64,000 bases of DNA from Candidatus Bathyarchaeota archaeon (GCA_963733055.1 CAVTBR010000002.1:471071-535070), one strand, 5' to 3'. Counted from the stretch's first letter, positions 17,902 through 29,603 are shown. Numbers and translations are program-made. Notes: generated from the sequence alone by a model not told the origin.

Positions 17902-19121
17902 CTGTAAGCTTCGAACCCTTTTCCGAGAACCAACGACGCAATCTTCAACTCCATAATCTCATCGGTCCCCTCGTAAATTCGAGCCACCCTAGAATCGCAC
18001 AGATGCCTCGCAACGGGTGAGAGCAGTGAGTAACCGAAGCCGCCGAACACTTGCACCGCCATGTCTGCGCTCTCGTACGCCAGCCGCGACGCGACACGTT
18101 TGGCGATTGCCGATTGTAAGTCCACCTTGTTGCGGAGTTCCAGGTCGGTAGGGTTTGCATCTAGCCTTGTCTTCTCAACTGCCGCAAAGTACGTCGGCCA
18201 TCGTGCCATCTCCAAATTCATGGCCATGTTTGCAATGTGGCGCTGAATCAGTTGGTGTTTTCCTATCGGTTTCCCATGCTGGACCCTTGACTTTGCCCGT
18301 TCCGTCACTGAATTTAGACAATCCCCGATGATGCCGACGCATCCTGACCCTATCCCGATCCTTCCGTTCAGTAGGGCTGAGTAAGCAACGTACAACCCCT
18401 TGCCCAACTGGCCTACAACGTTCTCCTTCGACACCTTGCAATCTGTCATCTCAAGCATCGCCGTATCGGAAGTGAAGAGGCCAATTTTCTCTTCGAGGTG
18501 CATGGCCACCGAGAAACCAGCCGTCTTCGAGTCTACTATGAAAGCGGACATCCCCTCCGTCCTACCTTTCGGATACGCGAATACGATCAGAGAATCGGCG
18601 ATGCCGCCGTTCGAGATGAGATACTTCGTCCCATTCAACACGTACCCGCCATCCCGCTCTTCATAACTGGTCTTGAGTGACGTCGGCTCGCTTCCCGCCT
18701 CAGGTTCCGTTAGGCCGTACGCGAGAACCATCTCACCTTTCGCCGCAGGAATTAGATAGCGTCTCTTGAGCTCATCGCTTCCCCACTGTTGGATTGCAAG
18801 AGAAGCAAGTAAGCAGTGGACGTCGACGAACGTGACTACCCCAAGCCCCAACTGCCCATAGCGTTCCAAGGCCAGGGCCCAAGTCACAGGGTCTGCGCCC
18901 GCGCCACCCCACTCGGGGGATACGGTCAAGCCCATCAGTTGATATTTCTTCAGAATCTTTGGGAGCTCATCATTGTACTTGTGCGCGATGTAATGCTCGA
19001 ATTCCGGTAAGTAGAGCTCCTTACACGCCTCATCAACCCGTTCCAGAATACCCAACTGCTCTTCACTGAGTTCGCGAAGCCGTCCCGCGAGCCTAACCGA
19101 CTCGGCGAATGAACCTTCCAA
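17898..19121 (-). CDS. Acyl-CoA dehydrogenase
   Basis: YGLTEPEAGS, LNGTKYLISNG, RVQHGKPIG, QVFGGFGY and RIYEGTDEI motifs. Confidence 0.95.
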   Translation of the reverse strand: MEGSFAESVRLAGRLRELSEEQLGILERVDEACKELYLPEFEHYIAHKYNDELPKILKKYQLMGLTVSPEWGGAGADPVTWALALERYGQLGLGVVTFVDVHCLLASLAIQQWGSDELKRRYLIPAAKGEMVLAYGLTEPEAGSEPTSLKTSYEERDGGYVLNGTKYLISNGGIADSLIVFAYPKGRTEGMSAFIVDSKTAGFSVAMHLEEKIGLFTSDTAMLEMTDCKVSKENVVGQLGKGLYVAYSALLNGRIGIGSGCVGIIGDCLNSVTERAKSRVQHGKPIGKHQLIQRHIANMAMNLEMARWPTYFAAVEKTRLDANPTDLELRNKVDLQSAIAKRVASRLAYESADMAVQVFGGFGYSLLSPVARHLCDSRVARIYEGTDEIMELKIASLVLGKGFEAYS

Positions 19122-19348
19122 GAGAACTAAACTCCCTGTAAGACCTGATTCTCATTCCTCACATTCTTTTACGTCTTGTTACATCGATAACCGAGATTTC
19201 CAAGGCGAAAGGAGGCCACACATACCGACCATCCTGAGCCCAATCAGGATCTATACGACTCGATTACCCCGCCGTGGGCGAGGATCAACGAGGGGGTCAT
19301 AGCTAAGTCATATATTGTAGAATCTTCGATTGTTCCTTGGTGATATTG

Positions 19349-19438
19349 ATGTCACAAGGAACATATGTCTGCCCAGCCTGCAAGCAATTCTTCAAGACAA
19401 AGGAAGAGCTCGAAAACCACGCAAAGACCGCTCACTGA
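19349..19438 (+). CDS. Stand-alone C2H2 zinc-finger microprotein (29 aa, missing from the ORF track)
   Basis: MSQGTYVCPACKQFFKTKEELENHAKTAH fits Y-x-C-x2-C-x3-F-x5-L-x2-H-x4-H; GGTGA SD upstream. Confidence 0.85.
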   Translation: MSQGTYVCPACKQFFKTKEELENHAKTAH

Positions 19439-19558
19439 GCCAAGTAAACGCCGACCTTAGATTCCCCAACAGGGGATCTAACAACATCCATTCTTTTGGA
19501 ACATTTACGAGGAATGTGCAACAGTTAAGTCTAACGAGTTCTTATCCCTCAAACGAGA

Positions 19559-20065
19559 TTGACCGTGAAAAGTTCGTTCGAAAATTTTAGCATCTACGGC
19601 TTCGCCGTAGACTACCCGGAAATGAGCCGGGTCGAATTCAACTCGAAAGGTCGGCGCGAATCAGGCGACGTAGTTTTCCATTTGCCGGACAAAGTTGAGC
19701 GAGTTAGAATATTCCTGTCTTGGGGAGATTTGGAAAAGGTCAAACGATTCCAATCCACCGACGAACACGCCGATTTCAGCCTTGACGCCATGAAGAAGGG
19801 GAAGAATGTGCAGAACTTCGAACGCCTATCACGAGATACAATATCCATACACACTCACAGAAGCTCTGTGAACAAGGTTAGGTTTGATGAAAGGTCGAGG
19901 GGGTTAACCGGGAGCAAGGACATTTCGAGGGAAGCATACTCTCTACACGTCCATTGCCCAACATCAAACAGATATTTCGTATTGTACACGATGACCCCGA
20001 GCCACGGCGATAGCAGATATGATAAGATCATGGAATCGATGAAGGATTCTTTCAAATGCCACTGA
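19559..20065 (+). CDS. Hypothetical protein (possible PsbP/Mog1-like fold)
   Basis: YGFAVDYP near the start and a C-terminal SFKC end; fold guess is weak. Confidence 0.6.
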   Translation: MTVKSSFENFSIYGFAVDYPEMSRVEFNSKGRRESGDVVFHLPDKVERVRIFLSWGDLEKVKRFQSTDEHADFSLDAMKKGKNVQNFERLSRDTISIHTHRSSVNKVRFDERSRGLTGSKDISREAYSLHVHCPTSNRYFVLYTMTPSHGDSRYDKIMESMKDSFKCH

Positions 20066-20154
20066 ACGATACAGAGCGAACTGGCAGGGACCCTCCCGTA
20101 TAGCCCGCATCCTCTTTGATGACAAGAATCTAGAACCAAAAGGCTCAATGGTGT

Positions 20155-20260
20155 TGGAGCCCCGGGCGGGAATTGAACCCACGACCTACGCCTGTTTGGT
20201 TTGTTTACCAAGGCGTCGCTTTTGGCATTGGGTGATTCTACCAGGCTGAGCCACCGGGGC
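20155..20260 (-). tRNA. tRNA-Thr(GGU) with two introns (D-arm 17 nt, anticodon loop 12 nt)
   Basis: GCCCCGG...CCGGGGC-T-CCA; spliced anticodon arm ACGCC-TTGGTAA-GGCGT; mature length 77 nt. Confidence 0.92.
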
Positions 20261-20748
20261 GATTGTCGGCAGGCAGGCGTTGGAATATTCGCTAATTAAC
20301 CTTGGCGTCTGAACCTCATTGCGTTTGGGAAATGAAACATCACGAATCTCGCTCTTGTTAGGTCGGAGACTGTACGATCAAATTCCGGCAGGCTCTAAGT
20401 TGAGCGGACATCTTCCACGGCGTGGCGGGCTATTTCGGAAGATCTCATCGAATTTGATTGTGTGATTAGACAGCCAAATGGAGCTAAGGTAGGTTGGAAA
20501 AGCGTCGATTCGAGTGAATTAGTAAAAGCGGGTTATGATAGGTCATGAAAGCGCGAAATTGGATGTGTTTGGAACGGGGGAGGCTGGCCGGGGGTGTCAT
20601 ATTGGGTGCACTAACTTTTTGCGTTAAAAAATGGTATAATCGGACTTTTACCATTCACCAATGTGACAATACGTGACCAAACGCTTAAGTGCATTTATTG
20701 GACCACCGTGCGTCAGAGTCAATTAACAAAAGGAGGAAAATTAGAAAA

Positions 20749-21603
20749 ATGGTCAAGAAATGCCCATCATGCGGCTACAACAACCGTGATGACGCATCAT
20801 TCTGTTCAAGCTGCGGAGCATCTCTCGCAGGCAGCGCGGTCCCCTCACTCAAACCAGTCCCATCCGTACGCGTAGTAACCCCAGTCAGCCCCGGCGGACC
20901 TATCCGCGTGCCCGCACCAGGACAATGCTATTATCACCCCAACCTCCCAGCAGTATACGTCTGCAACAGATGTGGAAGGTCGATTTGTCGCGATGATTCA
21001 AAAACATACATGGATCTCGTCCTCTGCCCGCAATGTTACGCAGGAGTCGTTCCAATGGTAGCACAACAACCACCCCAAGCCGCCTATGCCCAACGCCCAC
21101 CCCAAATGGCGCCGGATTACGGTCCCCCGCCAATGGCTCAAGCCTATGGCCCGCCACCGATGGCACCGCCTATGGCTGCGCCAGCATTCGGTCCACCACC
21201 GATGGCTCCACCAGCAGCTGCTTACCCAGTCTATCCACCACCGCCACCAATGTTCGCCCCCGCATCACCGAGAGCACTCTGGGGCTTCATCCTATCAGTG
21301 ATCGCTGGAATCCTAGTAATACTCAACGCAGCAGCTTTACTCGCACCAGGCTTCTACGCGATGTGGGTAGGTGTATTCTTCTGGTTGCCAGCACTCGGCC
21401 CTGCTAGCTTAGCATTCGCAATCGGTATAATCATAGGGCTCATCCTGGTAATTGGGTCAATACTGATGCTGCTCGGCTACGGAACAATCGGAAGCATCGT
21501 CGTCTTCCCGTTGGCAGTGTTAAGCCTCATAATCGGCGGAGGCTTTGTGGCCGGCTTCGTCTTAGGTGTGCTGGGCGGTATACTCGGCATGCTCGGACGG
21601 TAA
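20749..21603 (+). CDS. Zn-ribbon + B-box-like zinc finger + Pro-rich linker + multi-TM membrane protein
   Basis: CPSC-x10-CSSC; CYYH-x7-CNRC-x4-C-x11-CPQC; (Y/F)GPPPMA repeats; hydrophobic Gly-rich C-terminus. Confidence 0.85.
   Translation: MVKKCPSCGYNNRDDASFCSSCGASLAGSAVPSLKPVPSVRVVTPVSPGGPIRVPAPGQCYYHPNLPAVYVCNRCGRSICRDDSKTYMDLVLCPQCYAGVVPMVAQQPPQAAYAQRPPQMAPDYGPPPMAQAYGPPPMAPPMAAPAFGPPPMAPPAAAYPVYPPPPPMFAPASPRALWGFILSVIAGILVILNAAALLAPGFYAMWVGVFFWLPALGPASLAFAIGIIIGLILVIGSILMLLGYGTIGSIVVFPLAVLSLIIGGGFVAGFVLGVLGGILGMLGR
21118..21207 (+). repeat. Intragenic Pro-rich repeat (Y/F)GPPPMA, three copies
   Basis: YGPPPMAQAYGPPPMAPPMAAPAFGPPPMA in the translation. Confidence 0.7.
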
Positions 21604-21625
21604 GTAGCGTAGGGCACCCCCAATA

Positions 21626-21647
21626 TTTTTTTTCTTTCTCTTTCTCT
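21626..21647 (+). terminator. Oligo-T/pyrimidine tract, probable archaeal intrinsic terminator
   Basis: TTTTTTTTCTTTCTCTTTCTCT 22 nt after the stop at 21603. Confidence 0.55.
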
Positions 21648-21886
21648 AACTTCAGTACGACGCCTAGTCGCTATTGCGCACTGGCGTGCTTCGAAGGCTG
21701 AGAAATGTATTTCTCTCCTTAATCCCCGAAGTATCGGGAGGGTTCGTTTCGTATTCGTACACCACGACGCTCGAATAAGCCCTCTGGAGCGCTCAGTCTC
21801 CATCCGACTCACCCTAACACGATGAACGCATGAGCCATCAAGTTAACTACACTCTATAAGATTAGGAGATGAAGGGGGACCAATCC

Positions 21887-23421
21887 ATGTCCTACGTCAG
21901 CATCTCGAAACCTGTGAAGGATAGGATTGTCCAAGCTGCACGGGACACAGAGACCGAGATTATTGGGCTTCTACTCGGTAAACTCCAAGATGACACGATA
22001 ATCGTCGAAGACTCGACCACCCACGAATTTTCGTCCGAACCACACCCGTCATGCTTCCGGCCAGCTCCATAGCAATCATAGCTGACCAACTCCTTACCGG
22101 ACGCTTGAAGGGCAACATCGTAGGATGGTACCACTCACACACAAGCGGAGGGCTGTTCTTTTCCGAGACCGATATTTCAACCCAAAAAAAACTACAGCAA
22201 TTCTCATCCTTGATTACGGGGTTGGTGGTTGATTCAAGAAACGGGGAAGTCGGATACTTCAGAGTCATCCCAAGAACTGACAAAGCCGTTCGACTCCCTG
22301 AATCAAGCATCATAGTTTATTCTGATCCGAAAGACGCCGTCCCGCCCCCTCAAAGGACAGCGACAGTTGTAACTCCCACGCCTACTGTGGAAGTTCGAAG
22401 ACACCCTCCTGCACGTCAGGTGCTGACGAGGCGTGCGGCGTTGGCGGTTATTTTGATTGTCCTAGTAATTTTGGTTGCGGGATTTGCAGGTCTGATCTAC
22501 AGTTACAAGTTCGCCTCCCAAACATCAGTAGCAATCATTCATAACCCCGTCTTGGCGGGGACCATTGGAACGCCAATAACGATTTTCGCCAACACAACCG
22601 GGCTTATACATAATGTGACTTTGGTTTATGGTCCGGAAAAACAGGGTCCGATTACAGACGTGGCAATGAAGACGGTGGTTCCTGGAGAATTCAGCTACGT
22701 GATTCCAGGCAATCAGGTGGCGGGGAATATGGCCTACTACATCAAAGCTTCCGATTCTGCGGGCAAGCAAGTTAACACTACCACTTATCACATCGTTATT
22801 TCTGATTTCAACATCCTACCACCAACCAGCTCGCTTACTGTATACAGAACCAAGTCTGCCGCCACAAACGTCCAAATAGCGTCCATCAACGATTTTACGC
22901 AACAGGTGCAACTCTCGGCAAACGGAAGCCCCAGCGGCATAACGATCGCATTCTCAAGAAACCCTGCCCCTACAGGAACAGTTAGCCTGAACGTGACCGC
23001 AAACTCGTCCACCCCCAACGGCACCTATCCAATAGCCCTGATTGCCACCTACCTACCACCTCAATCACCCCAAGTAGCAAGGCAAACGACTCTCAACGTA
23101 ACCGTAGCCGACTTTGAGCTTCAAGCCTCAACGACCAGTGTAACGGTCCCGGCCGGCTCAAAAGCGACTTTCAGCCTGAAGTTAACCCTCCAGAAGGGGT
23201 TCGTGGACCCTGTGAACATAACCCTGCTGAACCTTCCAGAGGGAGCAAAGTACACTTTAACGGGCAACCCGACGGTTCTACCTGGAGGTCCCGGGACGGC
23301 TACCATAACGGTTCAGATAACAATACCAGCCTTTACAAAGCCGGGAACATACCCTGTCGTTGTAGAGGCAGTTGGGGGCGGGCTAGTGCACGCCTTGACT
23401 GTCGAGGTTACAGTAAGGTAG
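21887..23421 (+). CDS. JAMM/MPN+ metalloprotease fused to a TM helix and extracellular Ig-like region; frameshifted near 22045
   Basis: The first frame gives ETEIIGLLLG (catalytic Glu). The second gives GWYHSHTSGGLFFSETD (HxH-x7-S-x2-D), TM AALAVILIVLVILVAGFAGLIY and beta-rich repeats with GTYPI/GTYPV. One base is apparently missing at CAC-CC-GTC-ATG. Confidence 0.85.
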
Positions 23422-23475
23422 TTTAGGCTCCTATATGGAGAGACAGGCAGCATGAGTGGAGGTGAACGATAGAAG

Positions 23476-23718
23476 ATGAAACTATTCATTCAAGCGCCTA
23501 TCGGACCCCAGACGGGTTTGGCGGAGATCGACGTGATCCCCGACCACACGGTTGCTGAAATCAAGCAACAGGTGTGCACCTCATTCGGCGTTGACCCGAC
23601 GACGGTTGCTCTGATGTACGGAGGCGCAATACTAGACGAAGGCTCAACTATAGCACGATCGGGCATTCCAGAAAACGCTCAACTCGCCCTCATGCCTTAC
23701 AACATAATTGGCGGGTAA
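23476..23718 (+). CDS. Ubiquitin-like modifier ending in Gly-Gly
   Basis: 80 aa; TVAEIKQQV and LMYGGAILDEGSTIARSGI parallel ubiquitin TIENVKAKI and LIFAGKQLEDGRTLSDYNI; ends NIIGG; GGAGGTGA SD. Confidence 0.92.
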   Translation: MKLFIQAPIGPQTGLAEIDVIPDHTVAEIKQQVCTSFGVDPTTVALMYGGAILDEGSTIARSGIPENAQLALMPYNIIGG

Positions 23719-23730
23719 GGCTGAGACCGA

Positions 23731-24324
23731 TTGGACGCTACTCTGCTATACAAGGAAAAGAGCCTCCTCAACCACCAATTCCCCACGATCACAGCCCTGA
23801 ACGACCCACCTACCCAGTTCGACGGATTAATTCGATGCGAGAAAGGAGAGGTAAGACGCCTTGCTGAGAAGGGAGTATGGCCCTTCACAGAGTACGTGAA
23901 CTGGAACAGATTCAAACTCGACCTGCCAAACGAATACCCACTGAAACCTCCCGTGGCGACTTGGCTGACAGATATCTCCCACCCAAATATTGTACCGAAC
24001 ATTCCGAATGCAGTTTGCGTGTCCGTCCTAGGTGAAAAATGGGATCCGCGACTCAAACTGATCTCGGTCGTCAATTCACTCCACTATCTCCTCACCGACC
24101 CAAACCCACAAAGCGTCTTCGACAACCCCCGTGCCTTGAAAGCTGCCGACGTTTGCCGATCACATGGGTTCCCTAGAATGACCAAGCACAAGGCGAAGGA
24201 AGAAGTGAACGATACAGTTCATTTCAACATAGTCCCCATACCAAGAACGCCAACCACACTCTCCCAACCCGGCGACATAGTGACCTTCTCAATCCCCAGG
24301 AGAGAAAACCGGACGCCGCGATAA
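23731..24324 (+). CDS. Ubiquitin-conjugating enzyme E2-like (UBC fold)
   Basis: FKLDLPNEYPLKPP, ISHPNI, VCVSVLGEKWDP (catalytic Cys) and LLTDPNPQS, the canonical UBC motif order. Confidence 0.93.
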   Translation: MDATLLYKEKSLLNHQFPTITALNDPPTQFDGLIRCEKGEVRRLAEKGVWPFTEYVNWNRFKLDLPNEYPLKPPVATWLTDISHPNIVPNIPNAVCVSVLGEKWDPRLKLISVVNSLHYLLTDPNPQSVFDNPRALKAADVCRSHGFPRMTKHKAKEEVNDTVHFNIVPIPRTPTTLSQPGDIVTFSIPRRENRTPR

Positions 24325-25574
24325 TGAAACTCGTTGCCTCCATCCCACGGTATAAGCAAATTGAGATCGACCTAGCCCCGACAAGAACCATCATGGAATT
24401 CAAACAGAAAGCCTGCGAGAAACTAGGTATAGAAGCAGACCTTACAAAATGCCTGCTCCACGGTAAGCAACTGACAGAAAACTCATCCATCGCACGGCTC
24501 AAGAACGAAAAAGACCCTGTGATTCTAGATTATCTCTGGGCACGGCAGCTTCTCGTCTGGGGCGCCGAGGGACAGCGGAAGATTCGAAACGCAACTGTAC
24601 TTTTGGCGGGGGCGGGAGCGATCGGTAATGAAGCCGCGAAAAACCTCGCCATGCTTGGGGTTGGAAGAATCATAATAGTGGACCGGGACAATATCGAGCT
24701 GTCAAACGTAAGCCGAATGGTCTTCTTCCAACCTAAAGACCTGGGCAAGAACAAAGCCGAATTCTTGGCGAAGAACCTTCATCTCACGTATCCATTCGTG
24801 ACGACTACCGCCTACCGGGGCGAACTTGAAGGCATGCCGTTGAAACTCTACCTTGACTCCCAAGTTGTTCTTTGTGGTTTGGATAATGTCGTTTCACGAA
24901 TCTTCCTTACGCAAACATGTCGTAAGTACTCCATTCCACTAATCGATGGGGGAATTACTGGGTTGAACGGAAGGGTTCATTCCTACCTGCCCCCCGATGA
25001 CCCATGCCCAATCTGCCTCTTCCCCGCGAACCAATACTCCAACATCGCGGGCCTACGTAACCCGTGCGAGGGGCCACTGGAACAAGAAACCGTTCCTTCT
25101 TTCGCCACCTCCATTTCCCTAGTGTCATCGATTCTCGCGCAGGAAACAGTCAAGGTAATCCTAGGGTTAGGAGAGTACAAGTCAACTAAGAAGTGGCCTG
25201 AGAAAACTGGCCAACCGCTCAGATCAATCCTGTTCGTTGACCTGAAGAACAATCGCTACAGCACCATGGACCTCAAAAGAAGCGAACGATGCATTGTCTG
25301 CGGGAAAGACGGAACGGGAAGAACCCTGGTTCCGCGCGGTGACATGTCGCTCGATGCCCCTCCTGGTTCCAAGGCCACGGTCGAAGAATCAATCCGGAAG
25401 GTTTCCAACCTGGCCAAGGGAGAACTCACGATTTTCGCAGAAACCTCAGAGGGTACACGGAAGATAGAGAGCAAATCGTTGCTTCGTAGCGTTGGAAAAC
25501 GGGGCGATTACCTGAGAATCTTGGCGGAGGGCAAGAACAAAGAACTCCACGAATCAATACTAAGACTCACATAA
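24324..25574 (+). CDS. E1-like activating enzyme (N-terminal Ubl + ThiF/E1 adenylation domain + C-terminal extension)
   Basis: N-terminal TIMEFKQKA..LLHGKQLTENSSI; RQLLVWG, GAGAIG, DRDNIELSNVSR, CPIC, NPCEG and CIVC. Start overlaps the E2 stop (TAATG). Confidence 0.93.
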   Translation: MKLVASIPRYKQIEIDLAPTRTIMEFKQKACEKLGIEADLTKCLLHGKQLTENSSIARLKNEKDPVILDYLWARQLLVWGAEGQRKIRNATVLLAGAGAIGNEAAKNLAMLGVGRIIIVDRDNIELSNVSRMVFFQPKDLGKNKAEFLAKNLHLTYPFVTTTAYRGELEGMPLKLYLDSQVVLCGLDNVVSRIFLTQTCRKYSIPLIDGGITGLNGRVHSYLPPDDPCPICLFPANQYSNIAGLRNPCEGPLEQETVPSFATSISLVSSILAQETVKVILGLGEYKSTKKWPEKTGQPLRSILFVDLKNNRYSTMDLKRSERCIVCGKDGTGRTLVPRGDMSLDAPPGSKATVEESIRKVSNLAKGELTIFAETSEGTRKIESKSLLRSVGKRGDYLRILAEGKNKELHESILRLT

Positions 25575-25732
25575 CCCGAATTTTGAACTATCCATGTTAG
25601 TTTCTCGCACAACCCCTCGCACCAGGCTCCAGCAACTCCATCTTCTATGGGGAAAGCAGCCATTCAAACGTCTATTTTCAATGGGTAATCGTTAAGAACG
25701 GCCTGCAAACACTTCCTTAGTGTGTTCGGAAC

Positions 25733-26146
25733 ATGATTCCCTGTCAATCATGCGGCAGACCAAACGCTGAGGACGCGAGATTTTGTTTCAGTTGCGGCGC
25801 AGCACTTTCAAGGTTTCCACCAGTCAAGGTTGAAGTCAAATCCCCATTAACAGGCCAGACAATTCCAACTCCACGAGGCGCCCCTCCGATGTATACTCCC
25901 AGACAGATTCAGACGCCGGGAAGCTGCTATTACCACCACGATCTACCATCAGCTTACGTTTGCACGCGGTGCGGCAGGTCGATTTGTGCAGGTTGCAACA
26001 AGCAATACGGAGTGCTAAACTTCTGCACCGAATGCTACTGGAACTTAGCCCCGAAGTTCAGTTATGGGCAGCAGCAGTATCAACAGCCCCAGCAATACCC
26101 TATGCCATACCCGCAACAAGAGCAAGGTATGAACCCGTTCTTCTAA
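25733..26146 (+). CDS. Zn-ribbon + B-box-like zinc-finger protein with Q/P/Y-rich tail (soluble paralog of 20749-21603)
   Basis: CQSC-x10-CFSC; CYYH-x7-CTRC-x4-CAGC-x9-CTEC. Confidence 0.85.
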   Translation: MIPCQSCGRPNAEDARFCFSCGAALSRFPPVKVEVKSPLTGQTIPTPRGAPPMYTPRQIQTPGSCYYHHDLPSAYVCTRCGRSICAGCNKQYGVLNFCTECYWNLAPKFSYGQQQYQQPQQYPMPYPQQEQGMNPFF

Positions 26147-27813
26147 GCTAAACGGCCTTCTTTCTTCAAACTCTCAGTTATTTCCTTCAACTGCTCAACA
26201 GAGATGCCAAGCTCTGTTGACGCCTCGGTCATAGATATGCTACCCTCATGTTTCACGATGTAATCATACACCCTATTCTCCGCCGAAGGCTCGACAATAG
26301 CCGCCACCGGGGTTCCGCATTTCTCGCAGAACTCGGCTCCCCTCGCTACATTGTTACCACAACTCTTGCAAACCATGAATGGCTCTAGCATTGCCTGCCC
26401 AGTTTTTTGCGGGCGAAGTCCCGCAGCCCTGCTCTCAAGCTTACTCCTCCTGTGAACTACCACTGCAGTAACTCCAACAGCAGCAAAAGCTACGGCGCTG
26501 CCCCCAAAGAGTAGGATAAGTGGTACGTAGTCTACTGCCCATTCAGCCCGCACAACGTACGGGCCATTCACCGTTAACATCCATGAGCTCCCCGTGTTAT
26601 TCAGGGTCTGAGTCGCTGGATCAACACTCCATCCCGTAAGGGCATATGAAACGGGCCAGGTACCCGAAGAGGTTGGGGAAGTAATCGTTGCGGTCGTTCC
26701 TCGATCATACCAGCCCGACCCTGAAACTGTTCCGTAGGTCGAACGCACATCAACATAGTACTGTGTGGTGTAAGCTAGCGTCACGTTTGTCGGACCAGTG
26801 ACCAAAACCGAGTAGGACAGATTCTTCGAAACAGAGCTGTTGTAAGACCAACCCGTGAAGCGCAAGCGTTCCACTGGGCTCAGATTAATGATGGAGGGCG
26901 CTGGCCCCATTTGCACGCTAGAATTCGCATCGTACCAACCCGCGTGCGTCTCATTGTAGGAGGAGGATACGCTCGGTGAGGAGTATGTCACGGTTAGGAG
27001 GTATTGAACGAGGTAGTTGGCGCTGACAATTTTCGGCCGATCCATTAACACCATTCCCGAAGGTTGCTGTCCAGAAGATTCCCCGCCCCAATGATCGAAC
27101 TCCAGGCGCGTATTCGATGAATTAGACGCAACCATGCTAGCAGAAAAGTTAGCCTCCACGCCCGAATCGTACCACTCCGAACCTGCCAAGCCTGTGACGT
27201 TCGGAGGATTGGACTGTACGGTCAAGAAGAACTGGGTCTTCCAATTTGCGACCGCTGCCTTTGGCCCATCCATGACTATCGGGTTGGACGTCAATTGGGT
27301 CCCTGTGGCGTCGCCAGACCAACCTGTGAATATGTTCCTCGTCCCCTGGCCCTCAGCGATTTGTTGATCATTCAAAATTGCGTGCGCCGTTGAGCCAGAG
27401 TTGTACCATGCCTGGCCGGTTATTGAACTGAAGCCGCTTTCCACGGATAGGAAATATTGAGGGGTGTAGTTGAACTGATGGCTGCCTGGCGTGCTGACGC
27501 CCCACTCCGTATTATTTTCGTAATATCGTGTCCCGTTGCCGTTCCCTTGCACGTAGGCATCCACTAAGATGACGTGCGGGTTGTTGTTTGCTGAAAGAGT
27601 ATACGTGGCCGAGCTCCCGCCGCTCAATGTTCCGTTAAAGCTTCCATCGACGTAGACGTGGGTTGTGAGGGAGGGCGGTAGACCCTGCACTGTGACGTTA
27701 ACCGTGTAGCTGTTGTCGCCACGAACGTAAGAGGCGTTGAGAGCGATTAGGACGATGGATAAGGCAATAACCACTAGCAATCGCCCTGAAGACCCCAAAG
27801 TCAGCCGTCTCAA
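26143..27813 (-). CDS. Membrane protein: signal peptide, tandem beta repeats, TM, Zn-ribbon, C-terminal winged-HTH-like domain
   Basis: Repeated TQYxLTV / GxxWYDSG / FTGWS units; TM; CKSC-x10-CEKC; VYDYIVKHEGSISMTEASTELGIS. Confidence 0.8.
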   Translation of the reverse strand: MRRLTLGSSGRLLVVIALSIVLIALNASYVRGDNSYTVNVTVQGLPPSLTTHVYVDGSFNGTLSGGSSATYTLSANNNPHVILVDAYVQGNGNGTRYYENNTEWGVSTPGSHQFNYTPQYFLSVESGFSSITGQAWYNSGSTAHAILNDQQIAEGQGTRNIFTGWSGDATGTQLTSNPIVMDGPKAAVANWKTQFFLTVQSNPPNVTGLAGSEWYDSGVEANFSASMVASNSSNTRLEFDHWGGESSGQQPSGMVLMDRPKIVSANYLVQYLLTVTYSSPSVSSSYNETHAGWYDANSSVQMGPAPSIINLSPVERLRFTGWSYNSSVSKNLSYSVLVTGPTNVTLAYTTQYYVDVRSTYGTVSGSGWYDRGTTATITSPTSSGTWPVSYALTGWSVDPATQTLNNTGSSWMLTVNGPYVVRAEWAVDYVPLILLFGGSAVAFAAVGVTAVVVHRRSKLESRAAGLRPQKTGQAMLEPFMVCKSCGNNVARGAEFCEKCGTPVAAIVEPSAENRVYDYIVKHEGSISMTEASTELGISVEQLKEITESLKKEGRLA

Positions 27814-28049
27814 ATCGACGTGTCGGATTTCGAACCTTAAGAATTTTACAACACTCTACGGTGTCGGTTAAATGCGGAAAGGAGCCCCATTTTAGACTGG
27901 TTCAATGAAAATTGGACCAACCCGTAACAGCAATGAGATTTAAGTTGCGTCCCACCGCCATAAGCTAACCCGTGCAAGTCGACGTTGACGACGCATTCGA
28001 CACAAACAGATGAGAAACTAATTTGGGGTTAGAGGATGGATTGTAAGGA

Positions 28050-28340
28050 ATGACGTCCACGCCATACACGCGGGGCCGTAGCCGCGAATACCAAGTTCTA
28101 AGGAAACTCAGGGAAGAGGGATGGTACTGTAGCCGTAGTGCAGCCTCACATGGCCCCGTAGACATATTCGCAGGCCGAGCTGGAAAAATCCTCATGGTAC
28201 AAGTGAAGAGCGGAAAGGGGAGAGCCACCGATGCGGAGCGAAGTACGTTGAAGCTTTGGGGCGAAGCATACCGGGGAAGGGTAGAGATTTGGAAGTATCG
28301 AAAAGGCAAACCGCTCGAACGGGAACTGGTCTACGAATAG
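28050..28340 (+). CDS. hjc: Archaeal Holliday junction resolvase-like PD-(D/E)xK nuclease
   Basis: RGRSRE, RSAAS, PVDIFA and VQVKS motifs. Confidence 0.8.
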   Translation: MTSTPYTRGRSREYQVLRKLREEGWYCSRSAASHGPVDIFAGRAGKILMVQVKSGKGRATDAERSTLKLWGEAYRGRVEIWKYRKGKPLERELVYE

Positions 28341-28357
28341 TGAGCCACGCAGATCTC

Positions 28358-28708
28358 TTAACTTGCTGTCGATAATAGTTTCATCTGACCTATGCTCTCG
28401 TCTATCGCCTTCTGAGAAAGTCCCCGTCCGAGACCTCCGTCCTTTCTGAATGCGGCTTTGCCGTCTTTGAATATGATAATCGTGGGAACAACTCGGATGT
28501 TGAAGACCTCCCAAAGTGGATTTTCTTCGTTGCTGATATCTACTGAGGCCCATGAAACGTGGTCCTTGTCCGCGGCGGCTTGAAAGGCTGGGTAGAATCG
28601 TGTACAGAACGGACACCAAGAGGCGAGAAAGACAGCGGCCAGTGTTCCTTGGTTGTTCAGAGTTTCGCCGTTGAAATCATCGCATTTTAGTTCCGTTTCC
28701 ATTACCAA
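28358..28708 (-). CDS. Thioredoxin family protein
   Basis: WCPFC and cis-Pro loop VVPTI. Confidence 0.9.
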   Translation of the reverse strand: MVMETELKCDDFNGETLNNQGTLAAVFLASWCPFCTRFYPAFQAAADKDHVSWASVDISNEENPLWEVFNIRVVPTIIIFKDGKAAFRKDGGLGRGLSQKAIDESIGQMKLLSTAS

Positions 28709-28763
28709 GGGGCTCTAGGCGGGACCTTACTTTCAACCTATCGTCGAATACGCCAAACCTTAC

Positions 28764-29603
28764 TCAAAGGGTTGGGGCGCGAACCACGAAATAGCAGAAC
28801 GGATCAGATTTAGCTTCACAGCTCTTCTCTACTACCTCAACCCGGCTGCCGACCAACTCTGCAAACCAGCCGGCGATGTGGCCTCGAATGAAGTTGCTTC
28901 TCGGAATGGCCGATTCCTTGTAGGACGCACATTCGAAGTTATCCCGAACCCGAAACTCAGCATTTTTCCGATCCAAGTCCACCGATACTATTTCGAATAT
29001 GCCCCAGCCGTTCGATGAGTATAACCCAACTATCGACCCAAGCTCATCACGTACGACACTTCCGAGCTGAGTGAGCAGATCCTTCATGATCGCTCTGCCC
29101 GCCGCCTCCCCCATTTCAAACATCACGACCCGGGCCGCCGCTCCGTCGCCAAAGACGCCCGTGATTCGAGAGAAGATTGACGCTAGGGAGTCAGTCCTCA
29201 TTAGGATGGCACGCTGCCCACCCCAACGCAACGGAAAATGGAATGAATCAATCAACAAACCCCTCCTTGGGATCTTGAAGCGAACTTCCACCGTCGACGG
29301 AAGAAATTCAAGCTCCTTAGCCAGTTCATCTGGACTGATCTCCGTTCCAGTAAAATCTGCGAAGAAACTCCAAAACGCGTGATTGGAATCGGATTTGGCG
29401 TGGTGGAAACCCGACAGGATGTTAACCTTATGCCTGGTTGCAATCGCAGAAGAGACCTCAAGCGCACCCGGCGTGTTCTTCATTCTGACCACGAAGTGTG
29501 CGAGCTTTCTATCCGGTCCAAATTCGAATGAGAGAACATCCTTAGGAACATGCTCTTCGCTATCGGAGAAAGAAGGAGTTGCGTCTGCAACGGTTTCCTG
29601 CAA
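28764..29603 (-). CDS. ACT + V4R (4-vinyl reductase) domain protein
   Basis: KNTPGAL..VNILSG ACT region; GWG, NFEC, RGHIAG and EKSCEAKSDPFCYF V4R motifs. Confidence 0.85.
   Translation of the reverse strand: MQETVADATPSFSDSEEHVPKDVLSFEFGPDRKLAHFVVRMKNTPGALEVSSAIATRHKVNILSGFHHAKSDSNHAFWSFFADFTGTEISPDELAKELEFLPSTVEVRFKIPRRGLLIDSFHFPLRWGGQRAILMRTDSLASIFSRITGVFGDGAAARVVMFEMGEAAGRAIMKDLLTQLGSVVRDELGSIVGLYSSNGWGIFEIVSVDLDRKNAEFRVRDNFECASYKESAIPRSNFIRGHIAGWFAELVGSRVEVVEKSCEAKSDPFCYFVVRAPTL

Follow-up and report, generated by a model that had tools for sequence, protein, structure and literature searches.

To our knowledge, studies of archaeal ubiquitylation of the eukaryote-like kind have dealt with Caldiarchaeum and the Asgard lineages, always with RING E3 ligases. 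The operon described for Caldiarchaeum subterraneum encodes ubiquitin (Ub), an activating enzyme (E1), a conjugating enzyme (E2), a small RING protein and an Rpn11 protease (PMC3082918; PMC5654768; PMC6043591), and its proteins are reported to work in vitro (PMC5654768). Asgard systems are described as comprising Ub, E1, E2 and RING E3s and as linked to the endosomal sorting machinery ESCRT, with ubiquitin E2 variant (UEV)/ESCRT-I parts (PMC9192718). The BilABCD operon, as reported, unites a ubiquitin-like modifier (Ubl), an E2, a JAMM protease that pre-processes the Ubl, and an E1 (PMC10557695). Here we analyse 64,000 nucleotides (nt) of Candidatus Bathyarchaeota archaeon (GCA_963733055.1 CAVTBR010000002.1:471071-535070; hereafter the window, with positions counted from its start), in which genes for a JAMM protease, a Ubl, an E2 and an E1 lie in a row between two genes for Zn-ribbon/B-box proteins. 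Judging from its sequence and that of its relatives, we think it fairly probable that this cluster encodes a Ubl-conjugation system that is dedicated, membrane-associated and passed on vertically within one Bathyarchaeia order, with the B-box proteins acting as E3 or adaptor.

Homologues of the ubiquitin system, counted among eukaryotic signature proteins (ESPs), are reported from archaeal metagenome-assembled genomes (MAGs) of a Costa Rica sediment study, Bathyarchaeota included (10.1101/763623), and the M67 isopeptidase is described as widespread (PMC9534799). In automatic annotation the E2 already bears the name 'ubiquitin-conjugating enzyme E2 [Candidatus Bathyarchaeia archaeon]', the partners being entered as 'zinc-ribbon domain-containing protein'. 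Prokaryotic B-boxes are described as fused to membrane proteins and tied to membrane-protein folding, stability and proteolysis, not to ubiquitin (PMC4506424, citing Burroughs 2011). An earlier note on this DNA took the operon for a distinct variant, and in the literature on Bathyarchaeota/Bathyarchaeia and ubiquitin and on prokaryotic B-boxes and ubiquitin we found neither a description of the cluster nor an account of B-box partners, a membrane-anchored JAMM or a Ubl-E1 fusion, the operon figure in the supplement of PMC5654768 and Burroughs 2011 lying outside this scope. 'Bathyarchaeota' does not occur in the text portion of that supplement.

The modifier and its predicted conjugation enzymes

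The 80-amino-acid (aa) modifier recognized in the earlier note is a member of the ubiquitin family: it matches Pfam ubiquitin (1.3e-9), and its PDB matches are ubiquitins, archaeal ubiquitin-like entries included. Its terminal GG, directly followed by the stop codon, is invariant in 30 sequences (the window Ubl and 29 relatives), and 8 of the 29 relatives carry a tail of 1-5 residues after it. The mature C-terminal end of eukaryotic ubiquitin is made by cleavage. Because relatives have such tails and a GG-ending Ubl also occurs fused to an E2, the mature end of this Ubl would likewise be made by cleavage at GG; the Caldiarchaeum ubiquitin (CsUb) precursor is similarly reported to have a tail after GG that is cleaved to give the mature end (PMC5654768). 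The fusion was seen twice, in a 288-aa protein of a Thermoprotei MAG (P0332) and at L069:7532-8350, the Ubl with its GG end being joined in frame to the N-terminal side of the E2. At the latter locus the next gene is a JAMM gene, and the vicinity has no B-box gene; the fusion together with the adjoining JAMM implies JAMM-dependent release of both parts.

No component is better conserved across loci than the Ubl (76-99% identity, against 41-88% for the E1 and 28-83% for the JAMM), and by this measure it is under strong purifying selection. Lys30 is invariant among the aligned Ubls, and the window Ubl has just two lysines. Its last Arg or Lys stands 19 residues before the C-terminal GG, so that diGly proteomics, which the earlier note had suggested as a check, would not work in that form.

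The E2 matches Pfam UQ_con above the cut-off (1.9e-16), and eukaryotic E2s align with it across the HPN motif and the catalytic Cys (E ~1e-12). Both features had been called intact from the single sequence, and they proved invariant among 40 E2s (H84, P85, N86 and C96), with Trp104 and DPNP also kept; the C-terminal tail, with two VRFNI-like motifs, is conserved in this set as well. In five other E2 relatives, some of them from Thermoplasmata MAGs (P0187, P0189, P0193, P0333 and P0334), a CxxC...CxxC Zn-ribbon extension replaces the VRFNI-type tail, so that a Zn module is fused to the E2 itself.

Coupling of the E1 to the E2 through TAATG was also seen as proposed, the E2 stop overlapping the E1 start at 24324. 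The E1 matches Pfam ThiF (4.1e-50), and its solved relatives are led by eukaryotic UBA1 (~1e-32), followed by ThiF (3e-22) and MoeB (3e-16); the NCBIfam ThiF, MoeB and UbaA models match below their cut-offs. Twenty-five aligned E1s share the GxGxxG region, SNxSR, KxKA, two CxxC pairs and an invariant Cys248 in LRNPC, their ATP-site residues are invariant, and they have in common an N-terminal ubiquitin-like domain (Pfam ubiquitin 1.7e-6, residues 10-66). An AlphaFold2 (AF2) model (predicted local distance difference test, pLDDT, 87.4; predicted template-modelling score, pTM, 0.85) consists of a beta-grasp (1-69), an adenylation fold and a beta-rich C-terminal domain (338-416) that in the model is beta-grasp-like, with Cys248 in a low-confidence, flexible crossover loop. 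Its top Foldseek match is UBA3, the NEDD8 E1 subunit, over ~430 columns. The E1 of a Caldarchaeales locus (L061) begins directly at the adenylation domain, so the N-terminal Ubl domain appears particular to the Bathyarchaeia lineage.

Two Caldarchaeales loci (L061 and L062) served as comparators for the Caldiarchaeum type, the N-terminus of the L061 E1 resembling the CSub1476 row given in the PMC5654768 supplement. Identities of the window proteins to them are 34% for E2, 31% for E1, 36% for JAMM and 33% for Ub, which bears out the suspected kinship with the Caldiarchaeum-type operon and, as homology to a proven cascade, supports the system. Three further ThiF-family genes and a second JAMM gene lie elsewhere in the host genome; sulfur-carrier and small archaeal modifier protein (SAMP) roles would thus be covered elsewhere, which argues that the present set is a dedicated one. 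From the conserved domains and catalytic residues we consider a working conjugation cascade very probable.

The E2 phylogeny that the earlier note had asked for was obtained in part. In a sample of 401 genomes of the phylum scanned with UQ_con, 68 genomes matched. Full-length matches (~1e-26 to 1e-31) came from families f46 (17/17) and f51 (24/24), f61 and f63 also being positive, and the Bathyarchaeia E2s match only over positions 47-122 (1e-16 to 1e-19). An exhaustive E2 search of 1.84 billion representatives returned 15 clusters at E<=1e-30, the named ones being 'hypothetical' proteins of Thermoprotei and Thermoplasmata MAGs, followed by a gap and, from ~1e-15, by eukaryotic E2s (plant, rotifer, mussel) and unnamed proteins. 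A maximum-likelihood (ML) tree of 49 E2s places the Bathyarchaeia and Thermoprotei/Thermoplasmata proteins with eight unnamed ones on one side of a branch with Shimodaira-Hasegawa-like approximate likelihood ratio test (SH-aLRT) support of 95, and 14 Caldarchaeales E2s, two named eukaryotic E2s and 13 unnamed proteins on the other. The window E2 thus falls, in this tree, in an archaeal clade apart from the Caldarchaeales and eukaryote-like E2s; the tree is a quick ML tree, briefly searched and rooted at the midpoint, and many of its rows are unnamed.

The JAMM protease heads the row. The co-oriented JAMM-Ubl-E2-E1 set that had been described stands insofar as all genes lie on the plus strand as placed, but a 1-nt deletion breaks the JAMM reading frame in two. 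Pfam JAB matches both pieces, which occupy different frames. The reading frame with the Glu motif is open from 21869, and the orthologue in the closest relative (L001) starts at MSYVSISK, matching the ATG at 21887, which is probably the start here also. The C-terminal piece carries the HSH-x7-S-x2-D active-site motif, one transmembrane (TM) helix and a ~300-aa ectodomain with many NxS/T sequons and weak Ig-like/NEW3 matches. The JAMM of L001 is intact (512 aa; JAB 3.1e-12; canonical motifs), and the two parts share one frame in 19/19 related loci in which both were detected.

DNA alignment with two relatives (L001 and L003) shows that a single G is absent behind 22046. Of 11 public runs listed, none of them recorded as RNA, four were compared at this place; near-identical pieces from one (X1) do not span the site, and the only bridging contig (X9, 90-95% alike) has an extra G at this point. 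The host assembly has 3 contigs (2.88 Mb). Frame changes were also seen inside the JAMM gene of two related loci (L022 and L027), in the acyl-CoA dehydrogenase gene of L001 (L001:106-1286) and in the convergent-neighbour gene of L005, L008 and L009; their occurrence in conserved genes of several related MAGs suggests that assembly indels are common in such material. The missing G stems either from an error of assembly or from a recent lesion, an assembly indel being at least as likely, and we find a real lesion doubtful. Programmed -1 frameshifting was rejected as unlikely, since a slippery heptamer is absent at the site and relatives have one base more.

Hydropathy profiles indicate TM segments in three conserved proteins (the A-type partner described below, the JAMM and the convergent neighbour), in keeping with the membrane association first supposed. 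In the neighbour a signal/TM segment precedes an ectodomain that contains InlB B-repeats; a TM helix and a cytoplasmic Zn ribbon come next, and a winged-helix-like domain forms the C-terminal end. The positive-inside character of the TM helix before the Zn-ribbon/winged-helix part indicates that this tail faces the cytoplasm. Its last ~45 residues are conserved in 22 orthologues (VYDYIVxHEGVISLSxAxxDLGIxVExLKExTERLKKxGRL) and weakly match winged-helix families (HTH_24 in 12/22, HTH_PafC in 10/22, RPA_C in 6/22; best 3.8e-6). Its sequence thus suggests a membrane-tethered Zn-ribbon/winged-helix protein and a candidate target or regulator of the system. Neighbour identity across loci is 29-85%, and the ectodomains of both the neighbour and the JAMM are fast-evolving, which leaves room for a surface-sensing or virus-related role.

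The Zn-ribbon/B-box partners and their distribution

The A-type partner, encoded upstream of the JAMM gene, matches Pfam Zn_Ribbon_1 (3.2e-8) and, below the cut-off, zf-B_box (0.0079). An N-terminal Zn ribbon (C-x2-C-x10-C-x2-C) is followed by a B-box-like module (C-x2-H-x8-C-x2-C-x4-C-x2-D-x9-C-x2-C); a linker rich in Pro then leads to the hydrophobic C-terminal third, in which ~4 TM helices lie. The B-type partner, encoded downstream of the E1 gene, has a Zn ribbon, a B-box-like module with Cys as sixth ligand and a Q/P-rich tail; the two types are 33-52% identical over ~100 residues in relatives, the B-type being a paralogue of the A-type cytosolic part. Paralogous B-box genes on each side of the operon are therefore present as first described, but they are more than brackets, for they share the operon's phyletic distribution. 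The ligand pattern C-x2-H-x8-C-x2-C-x4-C-x2-[C/D]-x9-C-x2-C was found in 45 of 46 orthologue open reading frames (ORFs) scanned, the miss being a 5'-truncated ORF, and across 39 domains seven ligand columns are invariant and the sixth ligand alternates between Cys and Asp among paralogues. The eight-ligand module has B-box1-like spacing. Pfam zf-B_box (PF00643) is the top family, matching 39/39 related domains at E<=0.1 (best 3.9e-7), and the next best are an ANCHR-like B-box (24/39), UBZ (17) and Prok-RING_1 (15).

An AF2 model based on 65 aligned sequences is confident across the two Zn modules (pLDDT 82-92; residues 61-100). With VIA-align the second module resembles FYVE/RIM-type fingers (Z 5.3-4.2) and PHD, RING and COL2 B-box structures (Z ~2.4-3.3; COL2 B-box 2.4). 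Foldseek with the B-box model gave no match at E<=0.001, a PDB profile search with the B-box alignment gave nothing significant (TIF1-beta B-box, E 0.16), and the ESM Atlas gave leads only (scores 0.88/0.83 and 0.79). The N-terminal ribbon has RanBP2/NZF spacing (C-x2-C-x3-N-x6-C-x2-C) and superposes on the NZF fingers of TAB2 (diubiquitin-bound entry; Z 3.1, root-mean-square deviation (rmsd) 1.4 A, 27 residues) and Npl4 (Z 2.7, rmsd 1.2 A, 26 residues). Canonical ubiquitin-binding NZFs have Thr-Phe directly after the second Cys; since the ribbon has Gly-Tyr or Gly-Arg there, Ubl binding by it is only a lead. When E2 residues 1-152 and A-type B-box residues 46-110 were modelled as a complex, both with their alignments, the score was 0.03 (mark 0.32), which is evidence neither way.

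As first noted, no RING was found by Pfam among the cluster proteins. In the host genome zf-RING_2 had no match, and control genomes gave none either; Prok-RING_1 reached only 19.3 bits there, below its cut-off of 29.1 and outside the cluster. The host genome (G000) has four B-box genes, two in the cluster and two elsewhere.

Related loci were collected by scanning one genome per species, which gave 29 loci encoding an E2 at 58-92% identity. The neighbourhood survey that had been proposed shows the same gene order in these loci of other species' genomes, which places the arrangement far beyond chance. Twenty-five of the loci are filed under Bathyarchaeia/Bathyarchaeota, one under 'archaeon' and three under bacterial MAG names (L002, L004, L007). 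Bacterial filings of the cluster (these three and P0006, P0146, P0357 and P0445) name Nitrospiraceae, Acidiferrales, Acidoferrum, Methylomirabilota and Saccharimonadales, and are probably binning errors. In closer relatives (12 loci, in which thioredoxin or acyl-CoA dehydrogenase is matched) the flanks are acyl-CoA dehydrogenase, an Hjc-like nuclease and thioredoxin, and gene order is constant.

Across a class sample of 401 genomes the E2 is present in 67, of which 66 belong to the window's own order and one (G013) to another. By genus, it was found in 20/22 genomes of g1 and 10/10 of g4 and in none of g2 (0/22) or g3 (0/3), and the other listed families of the window's order are nearly all E2-positive. 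We searched the same genomes for the B-box module alone, with a 52-column profile, and found it in 80/401: 72 at E<=1e-19 and, in other families, 8 weakly (1e-7 to 1e-5). The strong 72 include every one of the 67 genomes with the E2, and g2 and g3, which belong to the same family as the window genome, have neither E2 nor B-box. In G013 the locus reads, in a row, B-box/TM protein, a short 212-aa JAMM, a Ubl with a GGTL end, E2 and E1. A functional unit would be expected to show such joint absence (g2 and g3) and joint presence (G013), and from their shared phyletic distribution with the E2 the B-box proteins probably belong to the system. A synteny test for clean excision in g2 and g3 was uninformative, the nearest acyl-CoA dehydrogenase homologues being ~50% identical with no other window genes within ~13 kb. 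Constant gene order, ordinary flanks in closer relatives and near-universal presence in several families favour a cellular role over a mobile defence island; the pattern argues for vertical inheritance within one Bathyarchaeia order and against a typical defence island.

Table 1. Features of the cluster, with further B-box genes of the host genome and occurrence in the 29 related loci
Feature	Position	Strand	Basis	Related loci
A-type partner (Zn ribbon, B-box, ~4 TM), 284 aa	20749..21603	+	ORF, Pfam, hydropathy, ligand pattern in relatives	26/29; two misses at contig ends, third is L013
JAMM/MPN protease, N-terminal piece (Glu motif), frame 2	21887..22072	+	ORF, Pfam JAB, relative L001	28/29 (JAMM)
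JAMM frame break, one G missing relative to L001 and L003	22046..22047	+	DNA alignment	
JAMM C-terminal piece, frame 1	22051..23421	+	ORF, Pfam JAB, hydropathy	
Ubiquitin-family modifier (Ubl), 80 aa, GG-stop end	23476..23718	+	ORF, Pfam ubiquitin, PDB	29/29
UBC-type E2, 197 aa	23731..24324	+	Pfam UQ_con, PDB, alignment of 40	
E1, 416 aa	24324..25574	+	Pfam ThiF, PDB, AF2 model, Foldseek	27/29; both misses at contig ends
B-type partner (soluble Zn-ribbon/B-box protein), 137 aa	25733..26146	+	ORF, Pfam, relatives	21/29; four loci truly without
Convergent membrane neighbour, 556 aa	26143..27813	-	ORF, Pfam, hydropathy, 22 orthologues	25/29 (C-terminal part); all four misses at contig ends
B-box/Pro-rich/4-TM protein, no N-terminal ribbon	L066:3013-3606 (G000 contig 1)			
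Zn-ribbon/B-box protein, 114 aa	L067:2947-3291 (G000 contig 3)			

The ORF list gives six plus-strand genes in the same orientation between 20689 and 26146, an alternative upstream GTG start of the A-type gene at 20689 being likewise open. A GGAGGTGA motif lies upstream of the Ubl gene. A T-rich run at 21625-21650, 3' of the A-type gene, resembles an archaeal terminator, and a TATAAGAT box at 21855-21862, ~25 nt 5' of the ATG at 21887, is compatible with a leaderless JAMM-Ubl-E2-E1 transcript. A scan for bacterial-type promoters and terminators, with models ill-suited to archaea, stayed at chance level, and a tRNA scan of 18500-29000 found none. Beyond the cluster, a 96-aa Hjc/PD-(D/E)XK-like protein is encoded at 28050-28340 (+; Pfam Hjc 4.8e-7); it is matched in 18/29 related loci, at varying distance 3' of the cluster. 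Elsewhere in the host genome, the B-box gene on contig 1 adjoins genes for a large protein with NTPase and tetratricopeptide repeat (TPR) parts and for leucyl-tRNA synthetase, and that on contig 3 is convergent with a gene for a 440-aa secreted repeat protein with a C-terminal anchor. A weak though full-length Snf7/ESCRT-III match (E 7.2e-4, positions 5-169 of 171) at G000:C3:146437-146937 is below the cut-off, as is that of the sole control genome matching this model, Sulfolobus acidocaldarius.

Proposed mechanism and alternatives

In the mechanism that we favour, the E1 would adenylate the GG end of the 80-aa Ubl and then load it onto Cys248, and its C-terminal beta-grasp domain would recruit the E2. 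The Ubl would pass as a thioester to Cys96 of the E2 and from there to Lys residues of membrane-near targets, the site of action being the cytoplasmic face of the membrane. Zn-ribbon/B-box proteins (one membrane-anchored, one soluble, and two further paralogues elsewhere in the genome) might replace a RING E3 in bringing the charged E2 to its targets, and the membrane-anchored JAMM would trim Ubl precursors and remove the tag. Whether the B-box proteins act as E3 or adaptor is, on the evidence of co-distribution and ligand pattern, evenly balanced. In a bolder version, which we consider unlikely, they belong as native E3 or adaptor to a second archaeal ubiquitin system, one that is bound to the membrane and works as a transmembrane switch: the surface ectodomains of the JAMM and of the Zn-ribbon/winged-helix neighbour would set the balance of tagging and untagging on the cytoplasmic tails, and this balance could control turnover or release of the membrane-tethered winged-helix regulator.

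Several observations weigh against the favoured mechanism. At one locus (L013) the 4.4 kb upstream contain no A-type gene, and the B-type gene is missing from four loci. Five genomes (completeness 69-98%, one of them 98%) carry the B-box without a detected E2, and distant systems with Ubl-E2 fusions have no B-box nearby. Kin are not independent, so that the co-distribution reflects few gain or loss events, and it could indicate a substrate or helper role. Both window B-box modules fall under the Pfam cut-off (16.8 and 16.6 bits over the whole proteins and 22.7 for the A-type module alone, against 24.1), fold comparison says only that the module is a cross-brace binuclear Zn finger (Z <=5.3), and the JAMM of the host genome is out of frame. 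Much of this would suit a cascade that is real but in which the B-box proteins are substrates, membrane anchors, regulators or unrelated membrane-protein helpers travelling along, the E2 conjugating without an E3, perhaps through its conserved C-terminal tail. Besides the sub-threshold family match, the ambiguous fold, the four loci lacking the B-type gene and the Ubl-E2 fusions, such a cascade would fit the conserved tail motifs, the gaps of 265 nt and 158 nt and the T-run after the A-type gene, which suggest separate transcripts, and the published view, as given in PMC4506424, that prokaryotic B-boxes serve membrane-protein stability. Yet it would leave the strict co-distribution, including joint absence in g2 and g3, without a reason, as well as the A-type gene beside the operon in the sole carrier outside the order, and no RING was found to fill the E3 slot (zf-RING_2, for which the control was likewise unmatched; Prok-RING_1 below threshold). 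We regard it as rather unlikely.

Antiviral defence of the Bil type, with the Ubl conjugated to virus proteins at the membrane, appears quite improbable to us: the same four activities occur in BilABCD (as reported in PMC10557695), the ectodomains evolve fast and the E1 weakly matches BilD, but the system is single-copy and occurs, in several families of one order, in nearly every genome sampled, with uniform gene order and ordinary flanking genes in closer relatives, its Ubl appears to be under strong purifying selection, and PADLOC had no match for the Ubl, E2, JAMM or B-box proteins. Least probable of all, to the point of being hardly credible, is a sulfur-carrier or SAMP-type system in which the Ubl is merely adenylated or thiocarboxylated and the E2-like protein is inert. 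An E1 with a single ThiF domain, a MoeB/ThiF-type tetra-Cys site and sub-threshold NCBIfam matches would suit it; against it stand a UBC E2 with invariant HPN and Cys, a modifier of the ubiquitin family, an E1 closer to eukaryotic UBA1 than to ThiF or MoeB, the homologous Caldiarchaeum cascade, which is proven, and three other ThiF-family genes that can serve sulfur transfer. It is also possible, though again unlikely, that the system is decaying in this organism, the JAMM frame shift being genuine and the protease lost, as the base missing from the assembly, the second JAMM gene elsewhere and the loss of the whole system from two sister genera might suggest. Against decay, the remaining cluster genes are intact and highly conserved, the JAMM is in frame in every related locus with both parts detected, the assembly comprises three contigs, and frame changes in other genes of related MAGs indicate that assembly indels are common.

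If B-box proteins are indeed E3s, they would provide a prokaryotic precedent for the B-box in ubiquitin transfer, within a small membrane-linked Ub system; were they the native E3 or adaptor, the tie between B-box and ubiquitylation, as in eukaryotic TRIM-type proteins, would be older than eukaryotes. The E2s add to the archaeal clades to be weighed when rooting the eukaryotic ubiquitin machinery.

Comparison with described systems

The cluster represents a second conserved archaeal layout, in a class that is widespread in soil and sediment. With SAMP/UbaA and ThiS/MoaD-ThiF/MoeB it shares a GG-ending beta-grasp modifier and a ThiF-family E1 with a tetra-Cys Zn site, and a JAMM desampylase model matches weakly (9.8e-6); those systems have no E2, whereas the present E1 has a UBC E2 translationally coupled to it. 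With BilABCD, and with Cap2/Cap3 of type II cyclic-oligonucleotide-based antiphage signalling systems (CBASS), it shares the same four activities in one operon. In the PADLOC library of 2023 neither B-box protein had a match, nor did the Ubl, E2 or JAMM (its BilA, BilB, BilC and Cap3 models were unmatched), and BilD, which the E1 matches weakly (5.8e-8), is one of 33 generic E1 models that do so. Unlike BilABCD, the cluster is fixed in gene order, vertical at the level of the order rather than sporadic, and accompanied by B-box and membrane partners. Asgard systems resemble it as a eukaryote-like archaeal Ub/E1/E2 toolkit with a possible membrane connection and differ, by description only, in having RING E3s and UEV/ESCRT-I parts, none of which is seen in the window cluster.

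The partner modules agree with eukaryotic B-boxes of the TRIM/CO type (PF00643) in B-box1-like ligand spacing and in the Cys/Asp alternative at the sixth ligand, and with prokaryotic B-boxes, as described, in fusion to TM segments. They differ from PF00643 in that the last ligand pair is C-x2-C, not H-x2-H, in that a RanBP2/NZF-like Zn ribbon precedes, and in that they adjoin and co-distribute with E1, E2, Ubl and JAMM genes, with no TRIM-like RING or coiled coil.

Closest is the Caldiarchaeum type, in which a GG-ending ubiquitin-family modifier is clustered with a UBC E2, a JAMM and a single-chain E1 whose Ubl-like domain is C-terminal, and in which, as in some relatives here, the precursor (the reported CsUb) is tailed after GG. 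In Caldarchaeales-type loci (L061:5960-6754, L062:5894-6676, L064:5856-6629 and L063:9390-10190) a conserved ~260-aa protein (MPKKIV...) always adjoins the Rpn11-like JAMM, and a ~240-aa protein with TM segments and a C-terminal Zn ribbon is encoded a few genes off; Bathyarchaeia may therefore not be alone in having membrane or Zn-ribbon partners. The JAMM of Caldarchaeales is a 202-aa protein of divergent orientation, whereas here it is co-oriented at the head of the operon, and the Caldarchaeales E2s match UQ_con in full length (~1e-30), the window E2 over positions 48-122 only (1e-16), the two sets being split by the supported branch of the E2 tree. Four traits thus distinguish the Bathyarchaeia cluster: the lack of a RING, whose place in the Caldiarchaeum operon corresponds here to Zn-ribbon/B-box proteins; the sharing of the E2's phyletic pattern by these partners; a membrane-anchored deubiquitinase, so predicted, with an ectodomain; and an E1 with an added N-terminal Ubl domain, which the E1 of L061 lacks.

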